From Candidatus Latescibacterota bacterium (lineage in GTDB: Bacteria > Latescibacterota > UBA2968 > UBA8231), in NCBI GenBank assembly GCA_965261395.1, contig OZ253462.1, positions 3,328,001 to 3,392,000 of the forward strand: a stretch of DNA of 64,000 nucleotides, given 5' to 3'. The position numbers and the translations under genes are program-made. Below the pieces are notes generated by a model. It was not told the origin of the DNA. It worked only from the letters and a program-made list of their open reading frames with translations, and did no database searches. Positions 9,046-41,870 of the stretch are shown one piece after another (the first letter of the stretch is position 1; each line of letters begins with the position of its first letter).

Positions 9046-9816
9046 ATGCGGATTTCGCGCATCCTATCGGCCCTGCTACTGGCGGCTCCCGTTGCCGCCG
9101 AAGAGGTCGTCGTGCCGGCCGGCCCCTTCACCATGGGCATTGATCACCCGCGAGCCACCGACGAAAAGCCCAGCCGCCAAGTCTATCTCAGCGCCTTCTC
9201 CATCGACCGCTACGAGGTCACCAACGCCCGCTTTGCCGCCTTTGTCGCGGCCACCGGCTATCAGACGGAGGCGGAAAAACGCGGAGCCGAAAAGGCCGAC
9301 GGCATTAGCTGGCGTCAGCCCCACGGCCCCGGCTCAGCCGCCGACCCGGGCCATCCGGTCGTCTATGTTAGCTGGCAAGATGCCCATGCGTATTGCGCTT
9401 GGCGCGGCGGACGCTTGCCCACCGAAGCCGAGTGGGAAAAAAGTGCGCGCGGCAGCGATGGCCAGCTCTGGCCTTGGGGCGCGAAGTTTGCCGCGGGACG
9501 CGCCAATCTCTGGGGACCGGAAGACGGCTATGCCGGGCTAGCACCCGTCGGCTCTTTTCCCGCAGGAGCCAGCCCGTACGGCGCGCTCGACATGGCCGGA
9601 AACGTCTGGGAGTGGTGCTCCGATTGGTACGACGCCAACTATTATGCCACGGCACCGACCAAAGACCCGCAAGGGCCAGAAACCGGCCGCCTCAAGGTCC
9701 TGCGCGGCGGCTCGTGGATCAACCCAGGACCGGCGCTGCGCAGCACCAACCGCTTTGAGGTCCTGCCCGTAGAACGCAGCCCCTATATCGGCTTCCGCTG
9801 CGCCCGCTCTCCATGA
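9046..9816 (+). CDS. Secreted FGE/SUMF1-domain protein lacking catalytic cysteines
   Basis: Signal peptide; EVTN, RLPTEAEWE, MAGNVWEW, RGGSW and GFRC motifs; no CxxxxC after RGGS. Confidence 0.9.
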   Translation: MRISRILSALLLAAPVAAEEVVVPAGPFTMGIDHPRATDEKPSRQVYLSAFSIDRYEVTNARFAAFVAATGYQTEAEKRGAEKADGISWRQPHGPGSAADPGHPVVYVSWQDAHAYCAWRGGRLPTEAEWEKSARGSDGQLWPWGAKFAAGRANLWGPEDGYAGLAPVGSFPAGASPYGALDMAGNVWEWCSDWYDANYYATAPTKDPQGPETGRLKVLRGGSWINPGPALRSTNRFEVLPVERSPYIGFRCARSP

Positions 9817-11447
9817 CCCTGCTTACCGCGCTCTGCGTCGCGCTTTTAGTAGCCTGCGACGACGCGACGACGCCCAAGCCTGCGCCCGCACACTTTGCCG
9901 AAGTGGCCGCCGCTTCTGGCCTCCACTTTGAGATGCGCTCCGGCGGGCAGGTCAAAAACTACATCCTCGAATCCAAGGGCGGCGGCGGTGCTTTCCTCGA
10001 CTACGACGGCGATGGCTGGCTCGACATCTACCTCGTCAATGGTGCCCAGCTCGGGGGCACGGCTCCCCCCAACGCCCTCTATCGCAACCAAGGCCATGGC
10101 GCGTTTGACGACCGCACGCAAGCGGCCGGCGTCGGCGATGACCAGTGGGGCATGGGCTGCGCCGTGGGCGACTACGACAACGACGGTGCGAGCGACCTCT
10201 ACGTGACCAACTACGGCCCCAACGCCCTCTATCACAACGAAAGCGGTGGCACCTTCCGCGAGGTAGGCCAAGCGGCTGGCGTCGATCTAGCCGGTTGGAG
10301 CACCAGCGCGACCTTCGGCGACTATGACCGCGACGGCGACCTCGACCTCTACGTGGCCCAGTACCTACAATTTGCGGCCGAGCACGTGCCGCCTCGGGGC
10401 GGGATGTGGAAGGGGGTTCTAGTGTTCGCCGGCCCACTCGGCCTCATCGGCGCACAAGACGCCCTTTACCGCAACGAGGGCGCCGGCACCTTTCGCAATG
10501 TTACCGGCCAAGCCCATGTCGAACAAGCAGAGCCGACCTACGGACTTGCCGCGCTCTTTTGCGATTACGACCGCGACGGCGACCCAGACCTCTACGTGGC
10601 CAACGACTCCGCGCCCAACTTCCTCTACCACAACGAGGGCGGCACCTTCCGCGACATTGGCATTGCGGCAGGTGTGGCCCTCAGCGCCGAGGGGGTAGCC
10701 CAGGCCGGCATGGGCATTGCCTATGGGGATTACGACCGCGACGGATTTGGGGATTTTCTGGTGACCCATTTTGAGGACGATTACAACACCCTCTACCGCA
10801 ATCGCCGCGACGGTACCTTTGCCGTGGCCAGCGCTGCGGCCGGCCTCGCCGAGCCGAGCCTGCCCCACTTGGCCTTTGGCACGTGCTTTCTCGATTACGA
10901 CAACGACCAAGACCTCTTCGTCGCCAACGGACACGTCTATCCCCAAATACGACACTTGAACCCGGACGGGTACGCCGAACCCAACCAGCTCTTCGCCAAC
11001 GAGGGACCGGCCGCGGCCTACCGATTCTCCTCGGTTTCAGCCGGGGATTTGGGCCACCCTGCGGTCAGCCGTGGTGCGGCCAAAGGAGATTGCGACAACG
11101 ATGGGGACGTGGATCTGTTGGTGTTCAATCTCGACGGCCCACCGTCTCTGCTGCGCAACGACAGCGGCAACCAACTCAACTGGCTGAGCCTGCGGTTGGT
11201 CGGCACCGCGTCCAACCGCGATGGCATTGGGGCGCGGGTCGCCGTGGTCAGTGGCGGGGTCGAACAGATCGCCGAGCGGATCAGCGGTGGCAGCTTTCTC
11301 TCGCACAGCGACGGGCGCGTCCACTTCGGCTTAGGCACGAACACCACGGCCGAGCGAATCGAAATCTACTGGCCTTCGGGCCGCGTCCAGCGCTTAGAGG
11401 ATGTGGCCGCTAATCAGTTCTTGGTAGTAGAAGAGCCGGAGCGTTAG
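9813..11447 (+). CDS. CRTAC1-family lipoprotein (FG-GAP/VCBS repeats plus ASPIC/UnbV)
   Basis: Lipobox LLVAC; repeated DYDxDGxxDLYV; C-terminal NRDGIGA..HFGLG..WPSG. Confidence 0.92.
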   Translation: MTLLTALCVALLVACDDATTPKPAPAHFAEVAAASGLHFEMRSGGQVKNYILESKGGGGAFLDYDGDGWLDIYLVNGAQLGGTAPPNALYRNQGHGAFDDRTQAAGVGDDQWGMGCAVGDYDNDGASDLYVTNYGPNALYHNESGGTFREVGQAAGVDLAGWSTSATFGDYDRDGDLDLYVAQYLQFAAEHVPPRGGMWKGVLVFAGPLGLIGAQDALYRNEGAGTFRNVTGQAHVEQAEPTYGLAALFCDYDRDGDPDLYVANDSAPNFLYHNEGGTFRDIGIAAGVALSAEGVAQAGMGIAYGDYDRDGFGDFLVTHFEDDYNTLYRNRRDGTFAVASAAAGLAEPSLPHLAFGTCFLDYDNDQDLFVANGHVYPQIRHLNPDGYAEPNQLFANEGPAAAYRFSSVSAGDLGHPAVSRGAAKGDCDNDGDVDLLVFNLDGPPSLLRNDSGNQLNWLSLRLVGTASNRDGIGARVAVVSGGVEQIAERISGGSFLSHSDGRVHFGLGTNTTAERIEIYWPSGRVQRLEDVAANQFLVVEEPER

Positions 11448-11465
11448 CGCGAAGTGTCCCGCTCC

Positions 11466-13376
11466 CTATTCCTCGCGGATCACCAACCGATCATTCGTTG
11501 CGATAGGGCCGGGAACGATCTGGGTGTGGCCGGAGGGCCAGCGCACTTCGATAGCATCCACCACCTCGGCATCGTCTAGACCGAAGTACAGCGGCAATGC
11601 GCTCTGCGAGAGGTAGCCCGACTTGCCGTCGCGCACTCGGGTGTAGGTGTGTGCGCCAGCCTTCACTTGCACGATCGCGCCCAGACCGTCGCGGTTTGAG
11701 CGGACCCCTTGCAAGTCAATTTTGAGAAAGCGAAGGGCCTTTTTGTCACTCAGGTCGCTGATCAATACTTGGGGTGGGCCATTGAATTCGTTGGTAACGA
11801 TGTCCAAGTCGCCGTCGCCGTCGAGGTCGAAGATCGCCGAAGAACGCGAACCCTGTGCCCCCCAGACCTCGACCTGGCCCTCCTGACCCGCACAGCGGAT
11901 ATGCCCGCGGTCCACCCCAGTGCAGTCGAGCACAAACCAAGGTTTGGCCGTCTGGCGGCGCGGCTCAACCCCCAAGACGAATTCCGCGGCGAGGAAGGTT
12001 TGCCCGCGGTCGTTCAACAGCAGGGAATTGATACCGTAGCGGAAGGGATAATTCATACTCGCAGTGATGAACACATCTTCATAGCCATCGGCATTGAGAT
12101 CGCCAACGCTAAGCCCCCACGGCCAATAGTTTTCAACACCAATCTGATCGGATATCTCACTGAAGTGCCCCCCGCCCAAATTGCGGTAGAACGCATTGCC
12201 GAAGATGCTGTGCCCGTCGCTTACGAGAAAATCCTCGGGGTACTGCATATCCGCTTTTAGCTTCTCCTGTTCCGGCCCAATATCCTCGCTCATATCCGAG
12301 TGCATATCGGTGATGAGCATGTCGATACGACCATCGTTGTCGTAGTCGAACCCCTTAACTCCCATGGACCCCCAAGGGGTACGAGGGAACAGGTCGCGGC
12401 TTTTGTCAGTGAAGTATTGGCCCTCAGTATTCTCATAGTAGTGGTCATGGCCCTGCATGTTCAGGACGTAGAGATCGACCCACCCATCCTCGTTGGCGTC
12501 TATGGCACAGGCCTCGCCGGACCAGCTAGTATCTTGCAGACGCGTTTGGGCGGATACATCGACAAAGCGATTGTCGCCCGCGTTTTTGAACAGGATGCTT
12601 TGTTCAAATCGCTCGGGTTTGAGGTGGCCAGCAAAGGCGTCCTCTAGGCCGATGTAGTACTCGTATGCGATCGCGTGCTGCGGGTCGGAGTTGTAGGTGG
12701 TTGCCGGGGTGGCCACCTCAGTAGTGTAGTTGCCGACGTTGGCGAGGAATCCATCGAGCAAGCCGTCATTGTCGTAGTCGAAGAACAAGGCCGCGGAGGA
12801 GTGCCCCTTGTAATTGAGACCGGATGGGGCGGAAATATCCTCGAATTTGCCCGTGCCATCGTTGGCAAACAAGCGGTTGCCATCGCGGAGGACCGTGGCG
12901 TAGAGGTCTGGATCGCCGTCGTTGTCTAGATCGGCGAACGAGGCGGTAACGCCGATCGGGGCAGCTACTCCGACGCCGGCGGCTGTCGTAATATCCTCGA
13001 ATTTGCCGTCGCCCAAGTTGCGCCATAGCTCGTTAGTTCCGGCCTGCGTCGCAAGGTACAGGTCGTGCCAACCGTCGCCATCCACATCGGCAACGGCGAT
13101 GCCATTGCCGTGATCGTAGTGAATCGGCAGCCAGTGTTTGCCCGACTCCTCGGTAATCTGGTTGTGGAAGTGAATACCGCTTTGTTCAAGCTGGTCGAAA
13201 AAAGAGAACTGGTGAAATATGTCGAACTGTTCCGCCGCGGCGAGTTGCCCTGCCCTACGGTCTTCTATCCAAGGCGGGGCAAAGATCGCGGGAGGAACGT
13301 ACAAGGGCTTGAGGCTCTGCGCCTCGGCCACGGCCACGCCGTAGAAGGCAGCCATCAGTAATAGGAGTCGGTTCAT
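11466..13376 (-). CDS. CRTAC1-family secreted protein (FG-GAP plus ASPIC/UnbV)
   Basis: Signal peptide; DxDxDG repeats; NRDGLGA..YLSQ..FGL..WPSG. Confidence 0.92.
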   Translation of the reverse strand: MNRLLLLMAAFYGVAVAEAQSLKPLYVPPAIFAPPWIEDRRAGQLAAAEQFDIFHQFSFFDQLEQSGIHFHNQITEESGKHWLPIHYDHGNGIAVADVDGDGWHDLYLATQAGTNELWRNLGDGKFEDITTAAGVGVAAPIGVTASFADLDNDGDPDLYATVLRDGNRLFANDGTGKFEDISAPSGLNYKGHSSAALFFDYDNDGLLDGFLANVGNYTTEVATPATTYNSDPQHAIAYEYYIGLEDAFAGHLKPERFEQSILFKNAGDNRFVDVSAQTRLQDTSWSGEACAIDANEDGWVDLYVLNMQGHDHYYENTEGQYFTDKSRDLFPRTPWGSMGVKGFDYDNDGRIDMLITDMHSDMSEDIGPEQEKLKADMQYPEDFLVSDGHSIFGNAFYRNLGGGHFSEISDQIGVENYWPWGLSVGDLNADGYEDVFITASMNYPFRYGINSLLLNDRGQTFLAAEFVLGVEPRRQTAKPWFVLDCTGVDRGHIRCAGQEGQVEVWGAQGSRSSAIFDLDGDGDLDIVTNEFNGPPQVLISDLSDKKALRFLKIDLQGVRSNRDGLGAIVQVKAGAHTYTRVRDGKSGYLSQSALPLYFGLDDAEVVDAIEVRWPSGHTQIVPGPIATNDRLVIREE

Positions 13377-15049
13377 TGTCTCTCTAATTGTGCTAGTTGT
13401 TCCCGCGCCTTGGCGTGGTTGGGGTTGTATTCCAGTACTTTTTCAAAGGCGCGTCGGGCGAGGTCTGCGCGGCCAAGACGCATCGACAACTGCCCCGCGC
13501 TGTAGCGAGCCTGCACATCGCTGGGCTCGATTTCAATACACGTCTGGAAACTGTGTGCCGCCTTGCGGTGCTCGCCCAACTGCACGTACACCTGACCCAA
13601 GAAATAGTGGCTGTCGCGGTGGTCCGGATCAATGGCCAAGGAGCGGTGGAAGGCGGCTACTGCCGCGGGCAAATCGCCGGCTTGGTATGCCGCCTTGCCC
13701 TGGCCGTAGTGCGCCCGCACGGAAGTAGAGTCCAAGTCCAGCGCCCGGGCAAAAAACGAGCGCGCCGAGTCCGGGCGACCAGCGGATGCGTGGGCTTCGC
13801 CCAAAAGACAATGTGCTTCCACATTGTGCGGGTCAAGGGCAATGGCTCGCTCTAAAGCCGAGATGCCTGCTGCCGGCGCGTTCTGGTACAGGCGGACCAT
13901 CGCCAAGCGGATATGCGCCTGCACGTAGGACGAATCAATTTCGATGGCGCGCGCCAGCAGAGCAGCAGCGCGGTCCCAGTAGCGCTGGTTGGCGTTTCTG
14001 ATGCCCTGCTTATAGTGCCGCTCGGCTGCACTTAGGCGCTGGAACGCGGTCGCAGCAGCCTCCGCCTCCGCCTGTTGCCCCACCTGCGCGTAGGCCTGGC
14101 TCAACAGGTAGTAAGTTCGGGGGTTCGACGAGTCTAAGTGGAGTACCTGTTCGAGAGCGGCAACGGCTTTGGTAGGCCGCTGTTGTTTAGTATGTATCCC
14201 GGCCAAGCCAATGAGAGACCCCACGTGCTCCGGCTGGAGGACCAAGACGCCTTTGAAACCGGCGGCGGCGGCTTCTAAATCACCGCTGCGGACCAGCAGG
14301 TCGCTGCGTCGGTACAGGGCCTCGGCGTGGTCTGGCTGGAGCGCGAGGGCCGCGTCGTAAGCGGCCAACGCTTGAGCAAAAGACGCCAAGGACCGGTGCG
14401 CTTCCCCCAAGCGAAAGTAGTAATGGGAATGGTCCGCTCTCAGGGCGATGGCCTGCTGAAGACAGGCGGCTGCGTCCCCGTAGCGATGATCTAGCTGGAG
14501 GGCTGTGCCGAGCGCGTAGTGAAAATCGGCCCTGTCTGGGGCGAGGGCCACGGCGCGTTCAAAGGCAGGTACGGCATGTCCGTTTTCGTCTAGGCGGGCA
14601 TGAGCCAGCCCAATGTAGAAGTAGGTCTGCGCCAGCCTAGGGGCATAGGTGGTCGCCTCGGTGAGAACGGTCAGTGCCCGGCGCAGGCGGCCCTGCTTGA
14701 GGAAGGCCCCGCCGCGCTGGCTCAACAGCGCACCCCGCTGCTGGTTTTTCCGCTGAATCAGCGAGTCTGGCAGGGCGCGTTCCAGATGTTGTCGATAAAC
14801 CTGGACCTGAATGGTATCGAGGCTCTGGTTATCTGCCGCTAGGAGGTAGCGATCGATGAGCAGCTGGAGGTACTGGCGCTTGTCCACCGCCTCACTAGGC
14901 TGTCCGGCCGGGAGCTGCTCGACGAAGGCACGCAAGTGCTGGGCCGTAATCTGGTGTGGCCCGACCTCGGCGACGACCGGGTCTTCGGCGGCGATACAGG
15001 CTGACGTTAGATACGCCAAAACGCAGCCTAGCAGCCGCGAACATCGCAC
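13373..15049 (-). CDS. Secreted TPR protein with short SurA_N-like N-terminal segment
   Basis: About a dozen TPR units (e.g. A..LAPD.A..HY.LG); GTG start 15049 inferred from a signal-like stretch. Confidence 0.8.
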   Translation of the reverse strand: MRCSRLLGCVLAYLTSACIAAEDPVVAEVGPHQITAQHLRAFVEQLPAGQPSEAVDKRQYLQLLIDRYLLAADNQSLDTIQVQVYRQHLERALPDSLIQRKNQQRGALLSQRGGAFLKQGRLRRALTVLTEATTYAPRLAQTYFYIGLAHARLDENGHAVPAFERAVALAPDRADFHYALGTALQLDHRYGDAAACLQQAIALRADHSHYYFRLGEAHRSLASFAQALAAYDAALALQPDHAEALYRRSDLLVRSGDLEAAAAGFKGVLVLQPEHVGSLIGLAGIHTKQQRPTKAVAALEQVLHLDSSNPRTYYLLSQAYAQVGQQAEAEAAATAFQRLSAAERHYKQGIRNANQRYWDRAAALLARAIEIDSSYVQAHIRLAMVRLYQNAPAAGISALERAIALDPHNVEAHCLLGEAHASAGRPDSARSFFARALDLDSTSVRAHYGQGKAAYQAGDLPAAVAAFHRSLAIDPDHRDSHYFLGQVYVQLGEHRKAAHSFQTCIEIEPSDVQARYSAGQLSMRLGRADLARRAFEKVLEYNPNHAKAREQLAQLERQ

Positions 15050-15096
15050 GAAATTTTTCTGTTCAAAGTGGGCGACCAAGGGAAGGGGGCAACGAA

Positions 15097-17226
15097 TTAG
15101 TAAATGAGTGAAATAGTGCCGATTCGATTCTCCGATTCTTCGTCGGTGTCCAGCGAGATGCGGTATATGTAATGGCCCGGCGGCACCTGTTGGCCTTGGT
15201 CGTTTCGGCCATCCCACACCGGCACATTGACCTCTTGGTCGAACACGCCGCGGATCACGCCTTGCCGCTCGAGTTGGCGCACGCGCAGGCCGGCCAAGTC
15301 GTAGATATCGATAGTTAGCAGACGCTGTACCGATATATCGTGTAGCTGGAAGCGAAACTCGGCTGCGTCATTAACGCCGTCGCCGTTAGGAGTGAATGGG
15401 TTGGGTGCTAGGTGAACTTGCTCTAGAGGGTTCGCGCCCAGCTTGTCGGTCCGCACCCCCAGAGAGTTGCCCGGAAAGTCGATATTGGCATCTCCTGGGT
15501 TGATTAGCTGTTTGACGCCCGCGCCCGTGCTGTCGAAGACCCAGCCTTGAAATTGGGTTCCATAGCGCACCACGTGGGCGGCGAATTCTACCTCAATGAG
15601 CTTGAACGTGTCGTCCGTACCCACCAGCTTGGGCAGGGCCACGACGATGCGGTCGTCGAAAATCTCGACCGGAAAGTCGCTGCCCAAGGCGACGCCATCG
15701 ACGCGCACGGCATGCACGGCCTCGGCGCGGGTCAGCGTGAAAATTTCCAGCCGATCAAAGCCCGTGTCGCTTGGAGCAAAAGTTGGGCGCACGCTATAGG
15801 TGAAGGTCGTGCTCTCGCTGCGCGAGACGTCCTGCGGCCAAATCTCCCCGACAACCTCTAAGGCGGCTGGCGGCGCGAACTGGATCTCTAGTTCGCGCAG
15901 TGCACCGGCCTGGTGCAGGCTCGACAGGAAGATGACCTGGATTTGCAAATAGCGCTCGGGGCCGGGCGAGAGGATTGGGGTGCCGTCCGCCCACTCTACC
16001 GCCTCTGCGGTAGAATCGCGCTGACCGGCCGTCAGCGCGTAGGGGGCCGACCAGAAGCTCCAGTTTTCTTCGTCGAGGGTCGTAAAGCGCACAGACAAAT
16101 CAGCGCGTTCAAACTCCTTGCGGATTAGCTGCGTCGGCTCGCCCTCTATGTTGCTCGGCACCCAGTACAAATTGGGATCTGGGTCGCGGCCCGAGCGCGT
16201 GCGGATAATCACATTAGACCCCTCCTCAAACGCGCCGTCCCAACGGATCTTGCCCCACGCCATGGGTGTGCCAAAGTCGAGCACGGCCGTGGTGTACACG
16301 GCGCGTCCGACAAAGCCCTCGCCAAAGATCTCAAATTCGGCGATCTCCCAGTTTTCAATCGGGTTGAGCGGACGCACGGCCACCCACTGGAACTGCTGGG
16401 TTGGGAAGCGGATATCGACTATTGGGTCCAAATTTTCGGTTTCCTTGCCCAAGGTAATCAGCCGCGAGTCGTTGGGCGGGTCCACGCGACGGCTGCTTAT
16501 CGAGGCGAACCAGCGGTTCGCGGAGGTGCTCAAATAGCAATGGGGAGCAAAGTTGTTGAAGCTATTGGCCGCCGAGATCTCGTACCAAGGCAGGAAATTC
16601 TCGGTGAAATCCTCCTCGGCCAAGCCTTCCTTGGCCAGTCGCGGCTCCCCCATCAGCGCGAGCAGCTCGTCGATTTTGGGGTTGGCGGTGCCCAACCGCG
16701 GGTAGAAGCGGATCCGATTGATAGGGTAGTTGACGCCCAACTCGACAATCGAATTCTGGACGTACAACCGGCTCTGGATCCCGCTGCTTGCGCTGGTGCT
16801 GACGTTGAAAAACGCCGCCGTGTTGGGGTCGCCGTCGAACATGGGGGCAACCTGCACCAATTGGGTGGAGATGTCGCTGCAGCTCCCGCTGGTGGTGATG
16901 TTGTTAGAAATGCCACGGGCAATGCGGGTGCGGACCTCGGGGTGCGCCAAGTTCAAATCCGGCGGCACGAAAAACGGGCGCATCCACAGCCCATCGTCCG
17001 CATCGACGATCTCGTTGAGCGTATCTTCCCAAGTGGCATAGGCGATATTGGAAGCCACCGGCTGCATCTCAAGCAGCGCGCCTGCACTGTCGAGCACCGC
17101 GTAGTGGCCCGGCTCAAAGGACAGGGCCGCCGTCCAAGCATTGCCATCCTCGCCGAGTTTATACGAGTTGAAAGCGAGGGCCGGTGAGACGACCAGCACG
17201 CCGAGCAAAAGACCAACAAAGAGCAT
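15097..17226 (-). CDS. Secreted protein with C-terminal NPFTPNGDG/FlgD-Ig domain (paralog A)
   Basis: Signal peptide MLFVGLLLG..ALA; PNPFTPNGDGVND, IYDLAG..VR, WDGRN..G..VPPG.Y motifs. Confidence 0.85.
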   Translation of the reverse strand: MLFVGLLLGVLVVSPALAFNSYKLGEDGNAWTAALSFEPGHYAVLDSAGALLEMQPVASNIAYATWEDTLNEIVDADDGLWMRPFFVPPDLNLAHPEVRTRIARGISNNITTSGSCSDISTQLVQVAPMFDGDPNTAAFFNVSTSASSGIQSRLYVQNSIVELGVNYPINRIRFYPRLGTANPKIDELLALMGEPRLAKEGLAEEDFTENFLPWYEISAANSFNNFAPHCYLSTSANRWFASISSRRVDPPNDSRLITLGKETENLDPIVDIRFPTQQFQWVAVRPLNPIENWEIAEFEIFGEGFVGRAVYTTAVLDFGTPMAWGKIRWDGAFEEGSNVIIRTRSGRDPDPNLYWVPSNIEGEPTQLIRKEFERADLSVRFTTLDEENWSFWSAPYALTAGQRDSTAEAVEWADGTPILSPGPERYLQIQVIFLSSLHQAGALRELEIQFAPPAALEVVGEIWPQDVSRSESTTFTYSVRPTFAPSDTGFDRLEIFTLTRAEAVHAVRVDGVALGSDFPVEIFDDRIVVALPKLVGTDDTFKLIEVEFAAHVVRYGTQFQGWVFDSTGAGVKQLINPGDANIDFPGNSLGVRTDKLGANPLEQVHLAPNPFTPNGDGVNDAAEFRFQLHDISVQRLLTIDIYDLAGLRVRQLERQGVIRGVFDQEVNVPVWDGRNDQGQQVPPGHYIYRISLDTDEESENRIGTISLIY

Positions 17227-17347
17227 GTCCCGACCTCGATTTTTAGGGAGTGGAGGGCGTGAATGCAACATAGTAAAAAAAAACCCGCTATGCACTCTTT
17301 TGGCTAGGTTCTATATTAGCACATTCATTCCTAACAGGCAGGGTTTT

Positions 17348-20011: not shown

Positions 20012-20018
20012 GGGGAGG

Positions 20019-22220: not shown

Positions 22221-22224
22221 CGCG

Positions 22225-24933: not shown

Positions 24934-24945
24934 ACCGGACTCCTT

Positions 24946-24982
24946 AAAAAAATAAGGCGATGAGCTGGGTAGCCCATCGCCT
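24946..24982 (-). terminator. Intrinsic terminator between the TWGxIK protein and the 902-aa gene
   Basis: 12-bp stem AGGCGATGRGCT/AGCYCATCGCCT followed on the minus strand by TATTTTTTT. Confidence 0.7.
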
Positions 24983-25020
24983 GTAAATCTAAATCGAATG
25001 CCGGGTCGAGCCAGCAGGAC

Positions 25021-25923: not shown

Positions 25924-25953
25924 CTCCATCTCCTTGTAAATTGGCGTGAATAG

Positions 25954-25981
25954 GTAGGGGCGACCCACCGGTCGCCCCTAC
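25954..25981. repeat. GTAG-type REP palindrome, copy 2
   Basis: GTAGGGGCGACCCACCGGTCGCCCCTAC; differs from copy 1 only in the loop. Confidence 0.85.
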
Positions 25982-25997
25982 CTATATATCGCGCTTC

Positions 25998-26026
25998 AAG
26001 GTACTCCCAACAACGTTGAAAGTCAA
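25998..26026 (-). promoter_or_regulatory. sigma70-type promoter for the 25923 gene
   Basis: TTGACT-17 bp-TACCTT on the minus strand. Confidence 0.55.
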
Positions 26027-26102
26027 GCGTCTTTTTTCCGTACCGCCGTGTTCATAGCTGCCGTTGCCTAAAATTCTAATTCCTTGTTATCAAAGGAGTT
26101 AT

Positions 26103-27845: not shown

Positions 27846-27893
27846 AACGGCATTTCCTTAAGCAAATGTTTCTTTGTATAATGCAACGTAACT

Positions 27894-29558
27894 ATGGATA
27901 CTTTAAACAGAAACCTTTTGCGGCGCAGATGCGCCATCGCGTGGGTGGCATTGATTTTGTGGGTGGCCTGCAGCCAGCAAGACGCGCCACCGGTAGCCAC
28001 CGTCGGCGAGGTGCCCGTCACAGGAGCAGAACTGCGCCGATTTGCGTCAAACGTGCTGCCGGGGCTGCGTCCAGCCCAACAGGGGCAAGCAGCGCGGCAG
28101 GATTACTTGCAGACCTTGATCGACCGCCATCTCATGCTGCGCCAAGCGCGCGAAATGGGATTAGACAGCGAGCCGGCCGTGTGGGTCGAGCAGCTACTCC
28201 AGCGGCGCACCTATCTGGCGAACCTGTACCGAAAGCGCGACCTGCATCCCCAAGCGCAAGTTGCAGACGCGGACATCGCCCACTTTTTCGCAGAACAAGA
28301 CCTCGGGCGCGAGCGCCTCATGACGGCCATTTTGCTCCAGACCAAGGCCGAGGCACAAGCGATCCAGCGCCAGCTCGCAGCCGGCGCTTCCTTTGCCGAC
28401 CTCTCCGCTCAACACACGCTCGACCCGCGCACGGCCGCCCAGCGCGGCCAGATCGGCTTTGTCAATCGCTCCATGGCCAGCCGCCTTGGGGTTCCAGAGG
28501 TCGTATTCGATCACCAGCCGACCGGCGTCGTATCCGAGCCGTTGCCCTTGGGCCGGCGATTTCACTTGGTGCGCTTTATAGAGGATCGCCAAGTAGAGAT
28601 CGATAGCCAGCGCGACTTGCTCGCCCAACAGATGGCCAAAGCCAAGAGGCGGGAGGTCGAGCGGCAGCAGGTCGAACTCCTCGCCTATGAATTGGGCTGG
28701 CATTTGACCGCGCAGGGGCTAGCCGCCCTGCCATCGCAAGCGAATGCACCTCTGTTCGCGTATGCAGGCGGTCAGGTCTCCACCGAAGAATATCTAGAGG
28801 TACTGAAGAAGCATCAGATAACGCGACCAGAGGCGCTACGGGACAGCGCGGCCATTGCGGCTTTTGCGCGCCGCGCTATCCTGCCGGAGCTCGTTTTGGC
28901 CGACGCGGCCGAAAAGGCGGGCTATCACCAAGAGCCAGAGGCCGCGGCGCATTTGGCCAAGGCCGACGAAGAATTGCTGCTCAAGGCCGCGTATCAACGC
29001 CAAGTAAGCGATGCGGTCGCCGTAGCCGCAGCCGATGTCGAGCGCTATATCGCAGAGTATCCCGAACGATTCACCATCCCGGAGTCCATCTGCTTTGACG
29101 AGCTGATCGCGCCCAGCCTGCCAGAGGCACAGCAGCTCAAAGAGACCTTGACCGGCCAAGAGGATTGGGCCGCACTAGCCGAGGCTCGCGACTTCCCGCT
29201 GCGACCGCGGCGCGCCGACGGCCTCGTCTGCATGCACCGCTACAACAGCATTCCGTACCCCCAGCTCTGGCGCGCCCTGCAACAGGCCGAGGTAGGGGTC
29301 CTAAACGGCCCCGTGCGAACCCGCGAGGGATTCGCTTTGTTCGTGGTGATCCGCACCGAGCCCGCCCGCCCAGAGCCGCCACAGCAGGCACGGCAACGGG
29401 CGCGGGCAGCCCTCGTGCAGCAGGCCGAACAAGCGCGCTTTGACCAATGGATTGCGGCACTGCGAGCAAAATACCGCGATGAAATCGACATATCCGCCGA
29501 GCAACTCGCCGCTGCCCTGCCCGATTCGCTGCTAGCCAACCTAGTACAGCGCGAGTGA
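27894..29558 (+). CDS. PpiC/SurA-type peptidyl-prolyl isomerase lipoprotein
   Basis: Lipobox LWVAC; GASFADLS..T.D...GQIG and SEP....FHLV parvulin motifs; a second degenerate parvulin domain. Confidence 0.82.
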   Translation: MDTLNRNLLRRRCAIAWVALILWVACSQQDAPPVATVGEVPVTGAELRRFASNVLPGLRPAQQGQAARQDYLQTLIDRHLMLRQAREMGLDSEPAVWVEQLLQRRTYLANLYRKRDLHPQAQVADADIAHFFAEQDLGRERLMTAILLQTKAEAQAIQRQLAAGASFADLSAQHTLDPRTAAQRGQIGFVNRSMASRLGVPEVVFDHQPTGVVSEPLPLGRRFHLVRFIEDRQVEIDSQRDLLAQQMAKAKRREVERQQVELLAYELGWHLTAQGLAALPSQANAPLFAYAGGQVSTEEYLEVLKKHQITRPEALRDSAAIAAFARRAILPELVLADAAEKAGYHQEPEAAAHLAKADEELLLKAAYQRQVSDAVAVAAADVERYIAEYPERFTIPESICFDELIAPSLPEAQQLKETLTGQEDWAALAEARDFPLRPRRADGLVCMHRYNSIPYPQLWRALQQAEVGVLNGPVRTREGFALFVVIRTEPARPEPPQQARQRARAALVQQAEQARFDQWIAALRAKYRDEIDISAEQLAAALPDSLLANLVQRE

Positions 29559-29573
29559 AATGGAGGAATTCCC

Positions 29574-32500
29574 ATGACCATCCAACGCACACCCTTACGC
29601 TGGATCCTGCCGCTGTTCCTTTTCTTGAGCCAAGCGGGAGCACAGGAGGGGTTTGAGCTAACCGCCGACGGCATGGCCATAAATCGAGCCGCGCAATGGG
29701 AACACTGGACGCGGCCCAAACACGCCGTGCGCATCAACCCCCAGACCCATGCTATTATTCCGCGCCGCATAGGCCAAGCGACCGACGCCATCCTAGACGT
29801 CGACCGCTTCCAGACCCTGATCGGCAACCAGAGTGCATACGACAAACTGGTTAAGGAATTAAACCGCGCCGACCGCCCCATACCGCTCAACATCCGCACG
29901 GCCCCGGCCACCGTAGCCGGGGTGCCGATCATCTATCTAAAGGCCAACACAAAGAAGAACATCGAGATCGGCGATCCGATCATCTGGTATTACTATCACG
30001 GCGGCATCCGCCACGCCGGCACCAGCGCCGAAACCGCCGCGGCCATACTCGACGGCGACCCCGCGACCTATTGGGAACCCAGCACCTTGGTCTCCCGCAC
30101 CGAATACAACGACCTCGCGCCGGCCGCCAAGGGGCCTATCTACTTTTTCGTCAAAGGCGACGATGGCCTAGAGCGGCGGGTAGATGAAGCCGCGTACGAA
30201 GCAGCTGCCCCGGGGGATCGCCGCGTGGAATACCACAACCACTCGCTCGAAAATTGGACGGTCGATATCGACTTAGGCCGGCTGGTGCCAATCTCCAAGG
30301 TGGTGTTGCGCTTCCTAGACCCTGGCGAGGGCGAACCTTTCCGCCAAGTGCGCCTACTTGGCACGCCTTCGGACGCCCGGGGTGCGGCTTTATCGCTCAT
30401 AGACCGCACCATTGCCCCGGTCGAAAACCAAACCTCGGTGGAGTTCAACCTCGACCCAGATGATGAGGGTATTTACCGGCAACTCCACATCCTCCGCATC
30501 GCGGTCACCGACAGCAAGCTAAACAAGTTCGCGGCCGTGACGGAAGCTGAGTTCGCCGCCCTGTCGCTCGACCAACAGGGCGGCATCGACTACCACATCG
30601 TCAACGCGGCCGGCACTGAGACCAAGGTCGCCCGCAGCATCTACGAGGACGTCTCTCCCGAGCGCCGCGGTCGCCTCGTCCACCATCGGCGCGAGCGGCC
30701 CCGCCTAGCGGCCGTAGAAGTGTGGACCCAGGGCGACAACATCGCCCTCGACGTAATCAATGGCGGCGGCAGCGTCGAGCTGACCGGCACCTTCGGCGGC
30801 CTGCCCGGCTTCGACGGCCGCTACGAGAGCAACTTCCTCCAATTCGTCTGGTCGCCCGACCCCCGCTTTGAAGATCGCGGCATTATGATCCTCGACCTCG
30901 GGGCGCGCTTCTGGCTCAACTACTTCCGCATGGTAGGCGGCATCAGCGGGGTGGACGAATTGGTCGTCCGCATCTCCGACGGCACCCGAGATTCCAACGG
31001 CAGCCTGAAGTGGCGCGAGATGTACCGCCGGGCAGGATCTGCACAGAATTCTACCCCATGGTCGGGGGTATCAGTGGGTGCGGCGGAGAACGGGTTCGAA
31101 AGACTTGAGCAAGTGCGCTACCTGAACAGCCAGATATATACCAGCCAAGCAGGCCGCGCCGGCGGGTACAACACCGGCGACCGCATCCGCGAGGTGCAGC
31201 TATTCGGCGAGGGCTACCCCTCTGAAGTCACAGTCACCTCGCCGATGATCGAGCTGCCCGGCTCGGTCATTCTCGGCCCCATTGAATGGGAAGCCGACCT
31301 GCCGGACTCAGACCTAGTCGATGTCCAGATCCGCACGCGCACCGGCGACCGCCTCGTAGAGATCGTCGAGTACTACGGCAACGGCGGCGATCTCAAGACC
31401 GAAACCGAGTACACCAACCTGCCGACCAACTTTAAGGGACCGGTCGTGGATAAGCTGCAGCCCGGCGGCGGCTGGAGTAGCTGGAGCCAGCGCTATACCC
31501 GCTCGGGCCAGTTCGTGACCTCCCCCAGCCCGCGCCGCTTCTTGCAGATCCAAGCGCGGCTGCTCTCCACCTCGCCCGACGTGGCGGCCAGCCTGCGCTC
31601 CATTACCGTGAAATTCCTGCCCCCAGTGGCGCACCGGACCGTCGCCGAGATCTGGCCCAATACGGTCGAGCCGCGGGAAATGCGCGAGTTTGCACTTTAC
31701 CTCAAGCCCACTTTTGTCGAGCACCAGCCCGGGGGACCGCCCAGCCGACGCTTTGACGAGATATTGCTGGACGCCGCACCCATAGAGACGCTCTCTATCA
31801 CCGATGTGGCTCTCGGCCAGGAAGAAGATTTCGATCGTGGCCAACCCCGCCGCCTCTTCTCCGCCGCCAGCGCGGACGTGCTGATCGACGCGGCCACTGG
31901 CGATTCCCTGAAGATCTTCCCGGCGGATACTGGCACCGGCCTGCGATTACTCCTCCCCGAAAAGGTGGCCTTGCAGGCCGCAGACGACGATACCCGCACC
32001 TATTATCGGGTCGTTACCGAAGAGGGCGAGCAGGTGCCCGTAGATGACGACGGGCGCATACTCAACGAGCTGACCTATCTCGGCCTGCCACTTGAGGAGC
32101 AGGGCGACATCCTCTACTTCGCCCAGCGGGGCCGCGACGCGGACGGCAACCCCATTGTCGAAGCCGTAGAGGAATTCGCATACCGGAGCTTGGCAGATTC
32201 GCTCCAAGGCGAGATTCGCTACTTTCGCCGGCTGGTGGGCAAGGGCGGCGAATTTCCCTTTGACCGGCAGGGGAACTCATTGACCCAAGCCGCGTACAAC
32301 GCCCTGCCCCAAAGCCAGCAAGGGTCCATCGCCGCAGCCGGCGAGTTGGTGAGGGTGCGCTTTCACGCTTCGGTGTTGCTCAACGGCACCACTGTAGATG
32401 CCGCAATCCGCGATTCGGCTTTTCCCGATACCTATCAGCAAGTCGATCCCGGAGACGCCACTACCCTGACGCCTAGTACGGCCCTGAGCATCTCCGTGCC

Positions 32501-32834
32501 CTTGTCCGACCGCGTCGTGCAAGGCTTCGCCATCGCGCCCAACCCTTTTACCCCCAATGGCGACGGCACCAACGATCAAACCCACATACGCTTTGCGCTC
32601 GGCAACCTCAATGCCGAGCGCACCATCCAAGTGCGAATCTTCGACTTGGCCGGACATCTCGTGTGGAGCGGGCGTCGACAGAGCTTTGGGGAGCAGGTAT
32701 TCACTTGGGACGGACGCGGCGACGACGGTCAACTCGTGCCGCCGGGGGCGTATCTCTGCAAGATAGACGCCGACGTAGATGCAGCCTCTGCGTCCCACAC
32801 CAGTGAGACGCGTCTGATCGGGGTGGCGTACTGA
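29574..32834 (+). CDS. 1086-aa secreted protein with NPFTPNGDG/FlgD-Ig tail (paralog C)
   Basis: Signal peptide; FGEGY, IRTRTG, WSSWS, SPSPRRFLQ, AEIWP, PNPFTPNGDGTND and WDGR motifs; ends GVAY. Confidence 0.85.
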   Translation: MTIQRTPLRWILPLFLFLSQAGAQEGFELTADGMAINRAAQWEHWTRPKHAVRINPQTHAIIPRRIGQATDAILDVDRFQTLIGNQSAYDKLVKELNRADRPIPLNIRTAPATVAGVPIIYLKANTKKNIEIGDPIIWYYYHGGIRHAGTSAETAAAILDGDPATYWEPSTLVSRTEYNDLAPAAKGPIYFFVKGDDGLERRVDEAAYEAAAPGDRRVEYHNHSLENWTVDIDLGRLVPISKVVLRFLDPGEGEPFRQVRLLGTPSDARGAALSLIDRTIAPVENQTSVEFNLDPDDEGIYRQLHILRIAVTDSKLNKFAAVTEAEFAALSLDQQGGIDYHIVNAAGTETKVARSIYEDVSPERRGRLVHHRRERPRLAAVEVWTQGDNIALDVINGGGSVELTGTFGGLPGFDGRYESNFLQFVWSPDPRFEDRGIMILDLGARFWLNYFRMVGGISGVDELVVRISDGTRDSNGSLKWREMYRRAGSAQNSTPWSGVSVGAAENGFERLEQVRYLNSQIYTSQAGRAGGYNTGDRIREVQLFGEGYPSEVTVTSPMIELPGSVILGPIEWEADLPDSDLVDVQIRTRTGDRLVEIVEYYGNGGDLKTETEYTNLPTNFKGPVVDKLQPGGGWSSWSQRYTRSGQFVTSPSPRRFLQIQARLLSTSPDVAASLRSITVKFLPPVAHRTVAEIWPNTVEPREMREFALYLKPTFVEHQPGGPPSRRFDEILLDAAPIETLSITDVALGQEEDFDRGQPRRLFSAASADVLIDAATGDSLKIFPADTGTGLRLLLPEKVALQAADDDTRTYYRVVTEEGEQVPVDDDGRILNELTYLGLPLEEQGDILYFAQRGRDADGNPIVEAVEEFAYRSLADSLQGEIRYFRRLVGKGGEFPFDRQGNSLTQAAYNALPQSQQGSIAAAGELVRVRFHASVLLNGTTVDAAIRDSAFPDTYQQVDPGDATTLTPSTALSISVPLSDRVVQGFAIAPNPFTPNGDGTNDQTHIRFALGNLNAERTIQVRIFDLAGHLVWSGRRQSFGEQVFTWDGRGDDGQLVPPGAYLCKIDADVDAASASHTSETRLIGVAY

Positions 32835-32896
32835 CATCACCCATCCCGCCAATATGCTATCTCCATGCAGCCGCCCCCTGACCTTTACCCCATCCC

Positions 32897-34849
32897 TTGA
32901 CCGCGACTTCACCTACCGCACAGCGGCCCGGCCTCCGCGCCCTCCTCGTCGGCGCGGCCGGTGCTTGGGCCATTGGTGCCGGCGTCCCGTATTGCAACAT
33001 GGTGCTTCACGGCTCCCGGATCGCCTCGTACTTCAACACGCCCGCTGCGATCATTCTCTTCTTCTTACTCGTCTTTGTCGTCAACACCCTGCTGGGCCTA
33101 GTGCGCCGCTCTTGGATGCTGAACCGCGCCGAGTTGGCCCTGATCTACATCATGTGGATCGTCGCCACCTCCATCCCCGAGTGGGGGCTTACCGCCTTCC
33201 TGCTGCCCGATATTACCAGCGTCATCTACTACGCCACCCCCGAAAACAACTGGGCCGAGCTGCTCCACCCGCTGGTCCCCGATTGGCTCATCCCACACCA
33301 CGACTTCGACCAAATCAAGAATTTCTACGAGGGCGCCCCCCAAGGCGGGGGCATCCCCTGGGGCTTGTGGCTGCCCCCGCTATTTTTTTGGCTGCCCTTC
33401 GTCCTCGCGCTCTACTTGGCGATGATTTCCCTCATGGTCGTGTTGCGCAAGCAGTGGATCGAAAACGAACGCTTGATTTTTCCGCTGGTCCAGCTACCCA
33501 TTGCCATGCTCCAAGACGACGATGCCCGCCCGGGTGTGCTCAACGCCTTTTTCAAGAATCCGCTGATGTGGATCGGATTCGCCATACCCGCTATCGTCCA
33601 GAGTGCCAACGGACTGAACCACTACTTCCCCTACTTCCCCCGCGTCAGCCTCGATCATGAGATCCCGCTCTTCCGCGACAGCATCCACATCCCGCTCCGC
33701 CTGAGCTTTCAGATGCTTGGCTTTTCCTACTTCGTCAACCGCGACATCGCCTTTGGACTGTGCTTCTTCTACCTGCTCAACACCGTCCAACAGGGCATTT
33801 TCAACATCTTCGGGGTCCAGAAAATCGACCCGGTACTCGGCGCGTATAGCACGTACACCGGCTCTATCATCGTCCACCAAGGGTTTGGCGCGATCATCGC
33901 CTTGGTGCTCTTCGGCCTGTGGACGGCCCGCCGCCACCTGCGCGATGTGGCGCGCAAGGCCATTTTCGGTGCGCCGGACATCGACGACTCTGGAGAGATT
34001 CTCTCCTACCGCGCGGCCCTGCTAGTGCTAGCCGGTAGCCTCGCCTTTATGAGCGTGTGGCTGTGGCAGTCGGGCCTGCCCGCCTGGGTCACCCCCATCT
34101 ATCTCTTCTTCGCCTTTGTCCTCTTCGTCGGCATCACCCGCGTAGTTGCCGAGGGAGGACTCGCCTTTATCTTCGCGCCCATGATCGCCTCAGATTTTGT
34201 CGCGGCCGGCTTTGGCACCCGCACCATCGGCGCGTCTGGCGTCACCGCCCTCGCCTTTACGTACGTGTGGGCCAGCGACATCCTCACCTTTGTCATGGCC
34301 TCCTGCGCCAACGGCCTCAAGCTGGCCGAGGAAACCATAAAAAAGGGACGCCGCCTCATCTTCTGGGGCATCCTCCTCGCCATTTTCGTCACCCTCGGCA
34401 GCTCGATCTGGGCCATCCTCGACTTGGGCTATCGCTACGGTGGGATCAATACGGACTCGTTCTTCTTCGGCAGCGCGGCGCGCTACCCCTTTGACAACGC
34501 GGCCGCCCGCCTGCAAGCCCTCGATGGGCCGCACTGGGAAAACTGGGCCTATACCGCCCTCGGCGCAGGGGTCATGGGGCTTTTGCTCGCGGCCCGCCAA
34601 CACCTGTTCTGGTGGCCTTTCCATCCCTTGGGCTTTCCCATCAGCGCGGTCTTCGGCACCATGTTTTTCAGCGTCTTTCTCGCTTGGCTTTGCAAGACCC
34701 TCGTCCTCCGCTACGGCGGCCCAGCGCTCTACCTGAGAACCCGGCCCCTCTTCATGGGTCTAATCCTCGGCCAGTTCGTCACTGCCGGTCTCTGGTACGC
34801 CATCGACTACTTGGCTGGCGAGAGCGGCAACGCGGTGATGATCTGGTAG
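32897..34849 (+). CDS. DUF6785/DUF6784 polytopic membrane protein (putative transporter)
   Basis: Many TM helices; QWIENERLIFPL and WWPFHPLGF..YGG..Y....P.F.GLILG motifs. Confidence 0.78.
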   Translation: MTATSPTAQRPGLRALLVGAAGAWAIGAGVPYCNMVLHGSRIASYFNTPAAIILFFLLVFVVNTLLGLVRRSWMLNRAELALIYIMWIVATSIPEWGLTAFLLPDITSVIYYATPENNWAELLHPLVPDWLIPHHDFDQIKNFYEGAPQGGGIPWGLWLPPLFFWLPFVLALYLAMISLMVVLRKQWIENERLIFPLVQLPIAMLQDDDARPGVLNAFFKNPLMWIGFAIPAIVQSANGLNHYFPYFPRVSLDHEIPLFRDSIHIPLRLSFQMLGFSYFVNRDIAFGLCFFYLLNTVQQGIFNIFGVQKIDPVLGAYSTYTGSIIVHQGFGAIIALVLFGLWTARRHLRDVARKAIFGAPDIDDSGEILSYRAALLVLAGSLAFMSVWLWQSGLPAWVTPIYLFFAFVLFVGITRVVAEGGLAFIFAPMIASDFVAAGFGTRTIGASGVTALAFTYVWASDILTFVMASCANGLKLAEETIKKGRRLIFWGILLAIFVTLGSSIWAILDLGYRYGGINTDSFFFGSAARYPFDNAAARLQALDGPHWENWAYTALGAGVMGLLLAARQHLFWWPFHPLGFPISAVFGTMFFSVFLAWLCKTLVLRYGGPALYLRTRPLFMGLILGQFVTAGLWYAIDYLAGESGNAVMIW

Positions 34850-38994: not shown

Positions 38995-38998
38995 CCCC

Positions 38999-40258: not shown

Positions 40259-40259
40259 G
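40223..40259 (+). repeat. 37-bp gene-end direct repeat, copy 1 (native 3' end of the 38999 gene)
   Basis: TTCCCAGCGGCCAAGAAAAAGGAGCGCAAGACCTGAG. Confidence 0.95.
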
Positions 40260-40332
40260 TATTTGAAGAACCATATTTTGACGGGAAAAAGGGAACTGCT
40301 GTGAAACCGCTTTCTCAAAGGAGGAATTGACT

Positions 40333-40575
40333 ATGCCCATGATAGCTGTGCCTGCCCATTTTGATGGGAAGCGCATTTGCTTGGATGAACCATTTGAACT
40401 AGAGCCGAATGCGAAACTGATTGTCACCATTCTATCAGGACGAGAATCTGACAGTGAGCATACAGCTTGGTCGCGTTTATCCGGTCAAAGACTAAAAGAC
40501 GCCTACGGCGAGACCGAACCTGAGTATTCAGCGGATTTACTCAGAGAGGTGAATCCCGACTATGAAGGAAGGTGA
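40333..40575 (+). CDS. Putative antitoxin of a PemK/MazF-like pair
   Basis: RBS AAGGAGG; AHFDGKRI.LDEP..L.PN..L.VT and AYGE.EPEY motifs; overlaps the toxin start. Confidence 0.7.
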   Translation: MPMIAVPAHFDGKRICLDEPFELEPNAKLIVTILSGRESDSEHTAWSRLSGQRLKDAYGETEPEYSADLLREVNPDYEGR

Positions 40576-40898: not shown

Positions 40899-40899
40899 C

Positions 40900-40936
40900 T
40901 TCCCGGCGGCCAAGAAAAAGGAGCGCAAGACCTGAG
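40900..40936 (+). repeat. 37-bp gene-end direct repeat, copy 2
   Basis: TTCCCGGCGGCCAAGAAAAAGGAGCGCAAGACCTGAG; one mismatch to copy 1; immediately precedes ATG 40937. Confidence 0.95.
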
Positions 40937-41828: not shown

Positions 41829-41870
41829 CCCCTGCATTGACTGTCCGGACGTTGGATAAACTCGGTTTAC

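Follow-up and report, generated by a model that had tools for sequence, protein, structure and literature searches.

This analysis concerns a 64,000-nucleotide window of contig OZ253462.1 from a Candidatus Latescibacterota bacterium and, within it, the locus at 9046-34849, where the stretch 15097-32834 (often together with 32897-34849) is a single copy of an envelope cassette of seven genes that is specific to the Latescibacterota. The core families of the cassette are three large secreted proteins that share a C-terminal domain, referred to here as L, M1, and M2, an unannotated protein of 902 amino acids (aa; P902), a protein encoded by a 315-aa open reading frame (ORF; P315), a SurA-like protein, and a GT-C-TPR glycosyltransferase represented in the window by a 733-aa enzyme. 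The complete set of seven was recovered in 48 of 63 comparable loci, and the cassette genes stay linked and undergo duplication and divergence as a group. As a multi-gene system the core is genuine and, in the literature searched, undescribed; it belongs to a widespread, uncultured phylum.

The original prediction had read 13 consecutive envelope genes at this locus as one system for surface assembly or nutrient capture. All 13 ORFs are present and fill 9046-34849 with a GC content of 58-65%, and a hydrophobic, signal-like stretch occurs at the N-terminus of each of the eight exported proteins of the window (8/8). A failure of the families to co-localise in other genomes had been named as an outcome that would count against the prediction, and co-localisation was found. 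Relatives of P902 number 908 at E ≤ 1e-3 among 8000 scored candidates, or 741 clusters at 50% identity for the same threshold, and a scan of one genome per species located at least 570 P902 encoding sites. The best 80 of these sites were collected with 10-kb flanks each, and the synteny counts rest on the 63 loci with full flanks, in which the window proteins were compared to all locus ORFs by BLASTP. L-like proteins (the 1086-aa type) and the 733-aa type of GT-C-TPR enzyme were each identified in 62 of the 63 loci, followed by M2-like (61/63), M1-like (60/63), SurA-like (58/63), and P315-like proteins (54/63), with exactly three tail-bearing proteins in 50/63. Some of the 15 loci short of seven families lose a member through the flank limit or greedy ORF choice, and in one locus (L027) a SurA-like ORF was detected in the BLASTP comparison yet is missing from the final synteny gene set. 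The fetched locus records are labelled Latescibacterota nearly throughout, with some Gemmatimonadetes/Gemmatimonadota, one Bryobacterales, and a few 'uncultured bacterium' entries; the distant P902 clusters likewise carry the Latescibacterota label, with one partial member labelled Firmicutes.

Counting the best 80 of the at least 570 P902 sites, individual chromosomes carry at least 3-4 cassettes. The P902 tree includes clades to which each of the genomes involved contributes exactly one leaf (20/20, 15/15, 9/9, 7/7, 6/6, and 5/5) and an additional tandem-partner clade (4/4), most with a support of 1.0, and the cassette copies are thus old paralogues kept in parallel. Across 41 within-genome locus pairs, the identity between P902 copies tracks that of L, M1, and M2 (Spearman 0.82-0.83) and, to a lesser degree, that of P315, the SurA-like protein, and the glycosyltransferase (0.43-0.48), though these pairs are not independent and the p-values of the correlations are therefore inflated. 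P902 is the best-conserved member, with a median identity of 56% between paralogues versus 32-41% for the other families, and the number of P902 genes per locus does not follow that of the tail-bearing ORFs in a strict 1:1 ratio. Because the cassette is block-duplicated within genomes, the claim of one system holds for the seven-gene core. The FGE protein (3/63 loci) falls outside, and the part of the claim that concerned the CRTAC1-like (27/63), TPR (31/63), and DUF6785 (35/63) proteins and a second, TMTC-like glycosyltransferase is reduced to an accessory link.

At least seven distinct gene orders were observed. In 39 of 63 loci, P902 has L as its direct upstream and the glycosyltransferase as its direct downstream neighbour (order L-P902-GT), and P315 takes the upstream position, again with the glycosyltransferase downstream, in another arrangement (19/63). 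In six loci the gene following P902 encodes a TPR-only protein of 311-349 aa. The minimal form is a single-strand operon of seven genes (L066: P315-M2-M1-SurA-L-P902-GT). Two P902 paralogues are present in a cassette type designated F (L064, L068, L070, L071, L075, L078, and L080), with the order ..L-P902-TPR-M1-M2-P902'-P315, and in two of these loci (L070 and L071) the SurA-like gene is preceded upstream by an additional ORF of 186 aa that ends in the same C-terminal tail. Outside the core, the neighbouring genes are varied metabolic genes.

L (1086 aa, 29574..32834(+)) combines a signal peptide and a discoidin-type region with a core paralogous to M1 and M2. The M1 ORF of 956 aa (17141..20011(+)) has its likely start at 17348, which would yield 887 aa, and the M2 ORF of 732 aa (15097..17295(-)) at 17226, which would yield 709 aa. 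All three end in a PN.FTPNGD tail, in agreement with the proposal of three paralogous large secreted proteins with one shared C-terminal domain, and the paralogy extends well past the tail (BLASTP 3.6e-41 over 469 aa, with M1 also paralogous to M2; hhalign of the family alignments, M residues 101-705 against L residues 353-1046, probability 100, E 6.6e-71). The tail domain is Ig-like, of the CHU_C/FlgD-Ig kind, occupies the last ~110 residues, ends in VAVAY or similar, and sits on proteins with signal-like N-termini. It was located in L at 32502-32831(+) (CHU_C 39.3 bits, FlgD_ig 28.9), in M1 at 19679-20008(+) (CHU_C 24.7 bits, below the cut-off of 27; FlgD_ig 29.3), and in M2 at 15100-15429(-) (CHU_C 39.1 bits, FlgD_ig 20.6), such that two of the three window tails exceed the Pfam gathering score of 27 for CHU_C (PF13585). 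Family matches in Pfam and NCBIfam are confined to this C-terminus, PDB searches with L and M matched the tail only, and a hidden Markov model (HMM) of the tail matches only L, M1, and M2 among the 545 window frames of at least 60 aa. In the N-terminal part, an F5_F8_type_C (discoidin) domain was identified in 13 of 16 L homologues and not in the window L, where an insertion of ~60 residues in the discoidin-type domain (about residues 170-228) relative to the paralogues probably explains the miss by Pfam.

The tails behave as one family across the cassettes. Among 103 cassette tails (E ≤ 0.01), CHU_C was detected in 103/103, FlgD_ig in 101/103, and Por_Secre_tail in 4/103, and their alignment has an invariant core, P-N-x-D..N...G...G...W-G...G-Y, and an ending ..V-A-Y. 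PF13585 is precomputed for 114 of 120 M-type relatives among the matches listed, and the public names of M relatives are mostly 'hypothetical', with a few 'gliding motility-associated C-terminal domain' or 'FlgD immunoglobulin-like'. Searched against the PDB, the tail profile retrieves the Ig domains of FlgD (2e-8), Fn domains of C5a-peptidase, and the C-terminal domain of PorU (6e-4). Cassette-specific tail signatures were entertained and dropped, as the tails sort by protein family. Over 1.7 Mb of loci, the tail HMM identified 218 cassette proteins and 11 others. Four of these 11 were scanned (L038:3578-4186(-), L011:20124-22550(-), L073:717-2672(-), and L075:3-5027(+)) and all pass the NCBIfam cut-off of 23 for a type-A sorting domain, at 40.5, 37.0, 37.4, and 32.0 bits. 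Among the four are proteins of 202 and 808 aa, a deiminase-like protein, and an M36 peptidase, as is characteristic of enzymes tagged for the T9SS. These genomes thus encode enzymes tagged with a C-terminal domain (CTD), which hints at a CTD-based sorting pathway in the Latescibacterota.

P902 (22225..24933(-)) carries a signal peptide (ASA|QN) and matches no Pfam or NCBIfam family at E ≤ 0.01 and no PDB entry by sequence or profile search. Its named relatives are all 'hypothetical', and a Pfam domain is recorded on 0 of 120 among the matches listed. The composition resembles that of an outer-membrane protein (13.2% F+Y+W, 8.1% Gly, and one Cys), strand-like alternation occurs at both ends, and the protein terminates in a final strand, F-I-T-V-Y-A-G-L, with F, W, or Y as the last residue in several distant relatives. 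Residues 528-625 make up a highly conserved block rich in Asp and Asn, with a DxNxNGxVDxxE loop inside it. These features fit an outer-membrane barrel, and P902 is inferred to be a large, calcium-binding one that acts as partner to the tail-bearing proteins. A likeness to the SlpA_C family (PF21620) is suggestive only: 13 of 45 distant relatives match at E ≤ 0.05, always over the same profile region, which maps to window P902 residues ~390-500, with a best score of 30.2 bits where the cut-off is 35, and the model is not matched by the window P902 itself. Domains of TonB-dependent receptors or their plugs (SusC-type) were not matched in P902 or its relatives, and a search of longer proteins turned up no fused forms of P902, a negative of little weight. 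The 14 amphipathic strand-like segments of P902 (shuffles 8.4 ± 2.9) do not separate it from the soluble L and M proteins, and mutual-information covariation over 287 P902 sequences (an effective number of 116) scored antiparallel ladders no differently from parallel ones, and hence yielded no structural signal.

P315 (25021..25968(-)) has a likely start at 25929, giving 302 aa with a signal peptide. The ORF ends in STWGRIKTEFNH, and the conserved C-terminal tail TAVExxSWGxIKxxF lies at about 25024-25074(-). A second secreted protein with a tail of the TWGxIK type had been predicted here, and the ending is indeed kept as [T/S]AVE..[S/T]W[G/A].[I/L]K plus 2-9 residues in 55 of 55 complete relatives; elsewhere in the loci it occurs on just two other small ORFs. 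The predicted first mature residue is an invariant His (H23 of the 302-aa model, 24/24 aligned) in the context ..A|H-x-P-P-G-E-L, with the cleavage site predicted by eye. A regular expression recovered the corresponding [AGS]H pattern in 53 of 55 relatives, and of the two it missed, one proved on inspection to have the His, while the other is an over-long ORF. H108 is also invariant (24/24 aligned), and H132 is at least 90% conserved. Models for lytic polysaccharide monooxygenases (LPMOs), CopC, and YcnI/DUF1775 in Pfam and NCBIfam did not match P315, and the N-terminal His is consequently a lead and not a classification, though it makes P315 a directly testable metalloprotein candidate. The carbohydrate-binding family CBM9_1 (PF06452, cut-off 23.4) scores 21.8 bits on the window P315, below the cut-off; among 10 paralogues tested, one scores 27.4 and two 18.7-20.0. 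P315 has no PDB relative by sequence, and hhalign detects no relation of it to P902 or L.

Between P315 and P902 lies a terminator-like hairpin with a U-run, followed by AAGGAG (24955..24982(-)). The RNA fold of 24934-25025(-) has an energy of -34.8 kcal/mol and a z-score of -3.65, with 0 of 200 shuffles as good, and 8 of 19 orthologous loci show the stem as well. The hairpin may set the ratio of P315 to P902 expression.

The remaining core members are periplasmic helpers by type. The 733-aa GT-C (PMT_2-type) glycosyltransferase (20019..22220(-)) has nine transmembrane-like segments and periplasmic TPR families, and its gene is directly downstream of P902 in 62 of the 63 loci. GT-C enzymes have a conserved acidic residue in the first periplasmic loop, and the membrane part of the 733-aa type is strongly conserved, including D34 in the first loop; across 65 relatives, conservation reaches at least 90% at D34, E125, R210/N211, E303-D309, and R380-R382. 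A second GT-C-TPR enzyme of 580 aa (26103..27845(-)) is TMTC-like and accessory, with TPR matches, an FVFDD near the N-terminus, and a TMTC_DUF1736 score of 24.5 bits, below the cut-off of 27. It was matched over both the glycosyltransferase and TPR parts in 19 loci, all within the window orthologue group (L001-L025). At PMT_2 scores of 36.8 bits for the 733-aa and 38.7 bits for the 580-aa enzyme, both exceed the Pfam cut-off of 26.1, and the pair of GT-C-TPR glycosyltransferases first called from the ORF list is confirmed at the level of domains. Of the SurA/PpiC foldase call, the parvulin part is borne out: the SurA-like protein (27894..29558(+)) has two parvulin domains (Rotamase 46.5 and Rotamase_2 43.3 bits, both above the cut-offs) and a SurA_N_3 score of 22.0 bits, below the cut-off of 27.2; judged from its ..LWVAC motif, it is possibly a lipoprotein.

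The explanation we favour, tentatively and with considerable doubt, is that the cassette is a lineage-specific, elaborated variant of the Bacteroidota operon that pairs a type-B CTD cargo with its cognate outer-membrane partner. According to PMC12618676 and PMC9143113, porP/sprF-like genes are commonly found directly downstream of the genes for type IX secretion system (T9SS) cargo of type B, their products are cognate shuttles or anchors, and the pairs are sometimes accompanied by a PorE-like gene; PMC9143113 describes the binding of PG1035 by PorP and of SprB by SprF, and TPR and propeller domains in PorE. Type-B domains have five conserved motifs (A-E) needed for secretion in F. johnsoniae (PMC12618676), and PMC11285876 and PMC11205867 discuss the T9SS for several phyla in the FCB (Fibrobacteres-Chlorobi-Bacteroidetes) group.

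Under this explanation, export, anchoring, and glycosylation by the cassette proteins would proceed as follows. All components would cross the inner membrane via Sec, and the SurA-like protein would escort P902 and/or L, M1, and M2 in the periplasm, where the GT-C-TPR enzyme could move a sugar from a polyprenyl-phosphate donor onto them, as TMTC/PMT-like enzymes do on beta-sandwich domains. Such a role is plausible by analogy, since beta-sandwich adhesion domains are substrates for O-mannosylation by TMTC and related eukaryotic enzymes (PMC11292533 and PMC7001481). P902 would insert as a large calcium-binding beta-barrel. The C-terminal domains would direct L, M1, and M2 over the outer membrane via a T9SS-type translocon encoded elsewhere, and would also tether them to P902, as PorP/SprF do for SprB, with P315 docking by its own C-terminal tail. 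Outside the cell, the discoidin-type and CBM9-like modules may bind glycans or surfaces, and several diverged cassettes per genome would confer different specificities.

Several results weigh against this explanation. T9SS core genes were absent from the 40 window ORFs scanned and from 23 sampled neighbours, and the same 23 neighbours lack the PorP/SprF family. The resemblance of the tails to type-B T9SS domains, as claimed by the original prediction, stands at the level of Pfam (CHU_C) and fails at that of NCBIfam, where all three window tails miss the type-B cut-off of 35 for TIGR04131 (M2 25.9, M1 17.8, and L 26.2), as do five of six other cassette tails (20.3-26.3), with one passing (37.5). 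To the FlgD Ig domain the tails show a match of similar quality, and they may therefore be plain Ig-like modules. They cluster by protein family (43% identity) over cassette (37%), and so give no sign of cassette-specific co-adaptation. An adjacent partner of the PorP/SprF type was not found: P902 is no homologue and has no model match in Pfam or NCBIfam. Models for PorP/SprF, PorV, and SprA do not match the window P902, a Pfam match of this kind is absent from 27 of 27 relatives at E ≤ 5 and from 45 distant relatives at E ≤ 0.05, and at 902 aa P902 is far larger than the PorP/SprF shuttles. D[ST][AILVMT], the O-glycosylation motif of the Bacteroidota, shows no enrichment in L, M1, and M2 (observed 4, 2, and 3; expected 2.1, 3.7, and 3.6), and SurA-like and GT-C genes are foreign to known type-B operons. 

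As to the literature searched, Latescibacter* was never paired there with T9SS or type IX secretion, the cassette was described nowhere, and the TIGR04131 literature, judged by title among the matches listed, concerns Bacteroidota throughout. In the portion consulted, the Latescibacteria single-cell genome paper contains no account of a cassette of this kind.

Other explanations can account for parts of these observations. P902 may itself serve L, M1, M2, and P315 as both translocon and anchor without recourse to a T9SS, as a new family that is loosely usher-like or two-partner-like, with the SurA-like and GT-C-TPR proteins as dedicated helpers. Every cassette brings its own chaperone-type and barrel-type gene, P902 is unusually large and the most conserved member, type-F cassettes hold two P902 genes, and the window and the 23 sampled neighbours are devoid of T9SS core genes, all of which would agree with such a translocon. 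The neighbours with bona fide type-A sorting domains argue instead for a general CTD pathway, P902 has no evident energy source or plug element, and the missing fused forms are weak evidence against it; we regard this explanation as unlikely. Also unlikely in our estimation is a Sus-like nutrient-capture unit, in which P902 would be a diffusion or uptake channel, L, M1, and M2 surface glycan binders, P315 a binding or copper-dependent oxidative module, and the DUF6785/6784 protein an inner-membrane importer, with the tails serving complex assembly only. This physiology overlaps with that of the type-B variant and differs in the role given to P902. Several diverged cassettes per genome, the F5/8-type-C domains of the L homologues (13/16), the CBM9-like signal in P315, the adjacent DUF6785 genes (35/63 loci), and the GH42 or GDSL-esterase genes beside some cassettes would fit nutrient capture, as would the invariant N-terminal His of P315, which is typical of metal-binding, LPMO-like proteins (PMC10952591 and PMC12537917). 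Set against these are the lack of a TonB-dependent receptor or plug signal in P902, the inconsistent membership of glycoside hydrolases and regulators, and the high conservation of P902, which is not diversified, and a capture unit would leave the dedicated GT-C and SurA-like genes in every copy unexplained.

A structural envelope complex, without secretion, would have the tails as ordinary FlgD-type Ig domains on proteins that are periplasmic or associated with the outer membrane, and P902 as an abundant giant barrel like SlpA or OmpM by which the envelope is organised or tethered. The tails do carry FlgD_ig in 101/103 with FlgD as the top PDB match, 13 of 45 distant P902 relatives match SlpA_C below threshold in the same profile region, and the SlpA barrel has ~900 residues, 30 strands, and metal-binding insertions (PMC9388160). 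P902 is devoid, however, of an SLH, coiled-coil, or OmpA-type peptidoglycan-binding domain, the SlpA_C matches all fall below the cut-off of 35 and are absent from the window P902, the PN.FTPNGDG motif and CHU_C in 103/103 tails point to the sorting-domain branch, and multiple diverged copies per genome would be odd for a housekeeping tether, which makes this explanation very unlikely. The likelihood of a chance neighbourhood of unrelated envelope genes is negligible. The FGE gene (3/63) and some of the flanking genes do have no relation to the core, but for the core itself chance is refuted by the recurrence of the seven families in 48 of 63 loci, in at least seven arrangements and in paralogous copies within genomes.

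The remaining genes of the locus are accessory or lie outside the cassette. An FGE-sulfatase-domain protein at 9046..9816(+) (FGE-sulfatase 237.7 bits) is outside the cassette and scores 103 bits against the GldK model, for which the cut-off is 350. It may be non-catalytic, its C-terminal region having been read as lacking the paired cysteines. The two CRTAC1-like proteins that had been proposed, at 9813-11447(+), with a lipobox LVAC, and at 11466-13376(-), both hold FG-GAP_3 and UnbV_ASPIC domains. The gene at 13373..15217(-), with a likely start at 15049 giving 558 aa, had been described as a hybrid of SurA_N and TPR; the TPR families were recovered, and the SurA_N part was dropped, as residues 1-160 yielded 0 Pfam matches at E ≤ 0.05. 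The DUF6785+DUF6784 protein at 32897..34849(+), a frequent accessory, is polytopic as predicted (434.3 and 90.3 bits, nine transmembrane-like segments), has no PDB relative by sequence, and is unmentioned in the literature searched. In one cassette type (15 loci; e.g., L027:100-1647(-)) a gene for a 515-aa GDSL-type esterase adjoins DUF6785, and in locus L063 a GH42 beta-galactosidase gene lies upstream of the cassette-flanking DUF6785 gene.

Downstream in the window are genes for a DUF4175 protein (34904-38176), a TPR protein (38059-38994), and an unfamiliar 419-aa protein with a signal peptide (38999-40258), followed by a low-GC stretch with an IS701 transposase gene (42359-43444), and then MoxR (44118-45107) and DUF58 (45109-46008); the region 34904-46008 may be a MoxR/Bat-like gene set split by insertion. 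A suf operon (sufB, sufC, sufD, and sufS) extends over 46089-52962, with an insert of 44% GC between sufB and sufC that carries a DUF4238 gene (48071-48676). Transposase genes of the IS30 family (58667-59764(-)) and the IS5 family (62378-63367(+)) follow, such that three different insertion sequence families (IS701, IS30, and IS5) occur within 21 kb. Rfam and tRNA scans of the window returned nothing.

With at least 570 P902 genes, the cassette is among the most repeated and best-conserved envelope gene sets of the Latescibacterota, and two of its seven families, P902 and P315, are without any annotation. Should the type-B variant be the correct explanation, the logic of a type-B cargo and its partner would reach beyond the Bacteroidota with a different partner fold, and would be tied to dedicated periplasmic glycosylation and chaperoning. 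A bolder version, which we consider improbable, is that the cassette is a self-contained export and display machine confined to the Latescibacterota, composed of a calcium-binding barrel of a new family, three glycosylated, Ig-tailed glycan-binders, and a metal subunit with an N-terminal His. If true, it would be a modular and possibly oxidative glycan-capture organelle that has been duplicated into many specificities. The cassette offers a concrete way into the question of how glycan-binding proteins are presented by FCB-group bacteria that have no Sus systems.

Several known systems resemble parts of the cassette. Sus-like loci share with it the many diverged copies per genome and the combination of an outer-membrane protein with surface carbohydrate-binding proteins, whereas the cassette core is without SusC/TonB-dependent receptor, SusD, hydrolase, and regulator families. 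P315 resembles the histidine-brace proteins (LPMOs, CopC, YcnI, and 'anglerases') in the His after the predicted cleavage site and two conserved His, an N-terminal His being a natural metal chelator and a mark of histidine-brace and related metal sites (PMC10952591 and PMC12537917). Unlike these proteins, P315 lacks a model match, its only family signal is a weak CBM9_1, and its metal site is putative. P902 compares to Deinococcus SlpA (30 strands, residues 254-1167) and OmpM in its size of ~900 residues, its Asp-rich, putatively metal-binding stretches, the beta-signal-like C-terminus of its relatives, and their recurrent weak SlpA_C matches; it differs in the absence of an SLH or coiled-coil part and in gene context, and the PDB profile search finds no SlpA. 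The glycosyltransferases share with the TMTC/PMT GT-C O-mannosyltransferases a PMT_2 membrane domain with a C-terminal TPR array and the conserved acidic residue of the first loop. The 580-aa enzyme has a TMTC_DUF1736 signal where the 733-aa type is PMT_2-like only, and the cassette enzymes belong to a bacterial periplasmic setting, with an activity that is putative.

The closest parallel is with the type-B/PorP-SprF operons of the Bacteroidota. Both have cargo with a Sec signal and a C-terminal domain matching models of the CHU_C/TIGR04131 type, and in 39 of 63 loci an outer-membrane-type gene lies directly downstream of a tail-bearing gene, comparable to the arrangement given in PMC12618676. 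The accessory TPR and beta-propeller genes of the cassette recall the TPR and propeller domains of PorE (PMC9143113). The cassette differs in lineage, in window tails that fall below the NCBIfam cut-off, in a partner from an unrelated and unannotated 902-aa family, and in a fixed number of three paralogous cargoes, and it adds its own SurA-like and GT-C-TPR genes and a tail-bearing protein of 300 aa.

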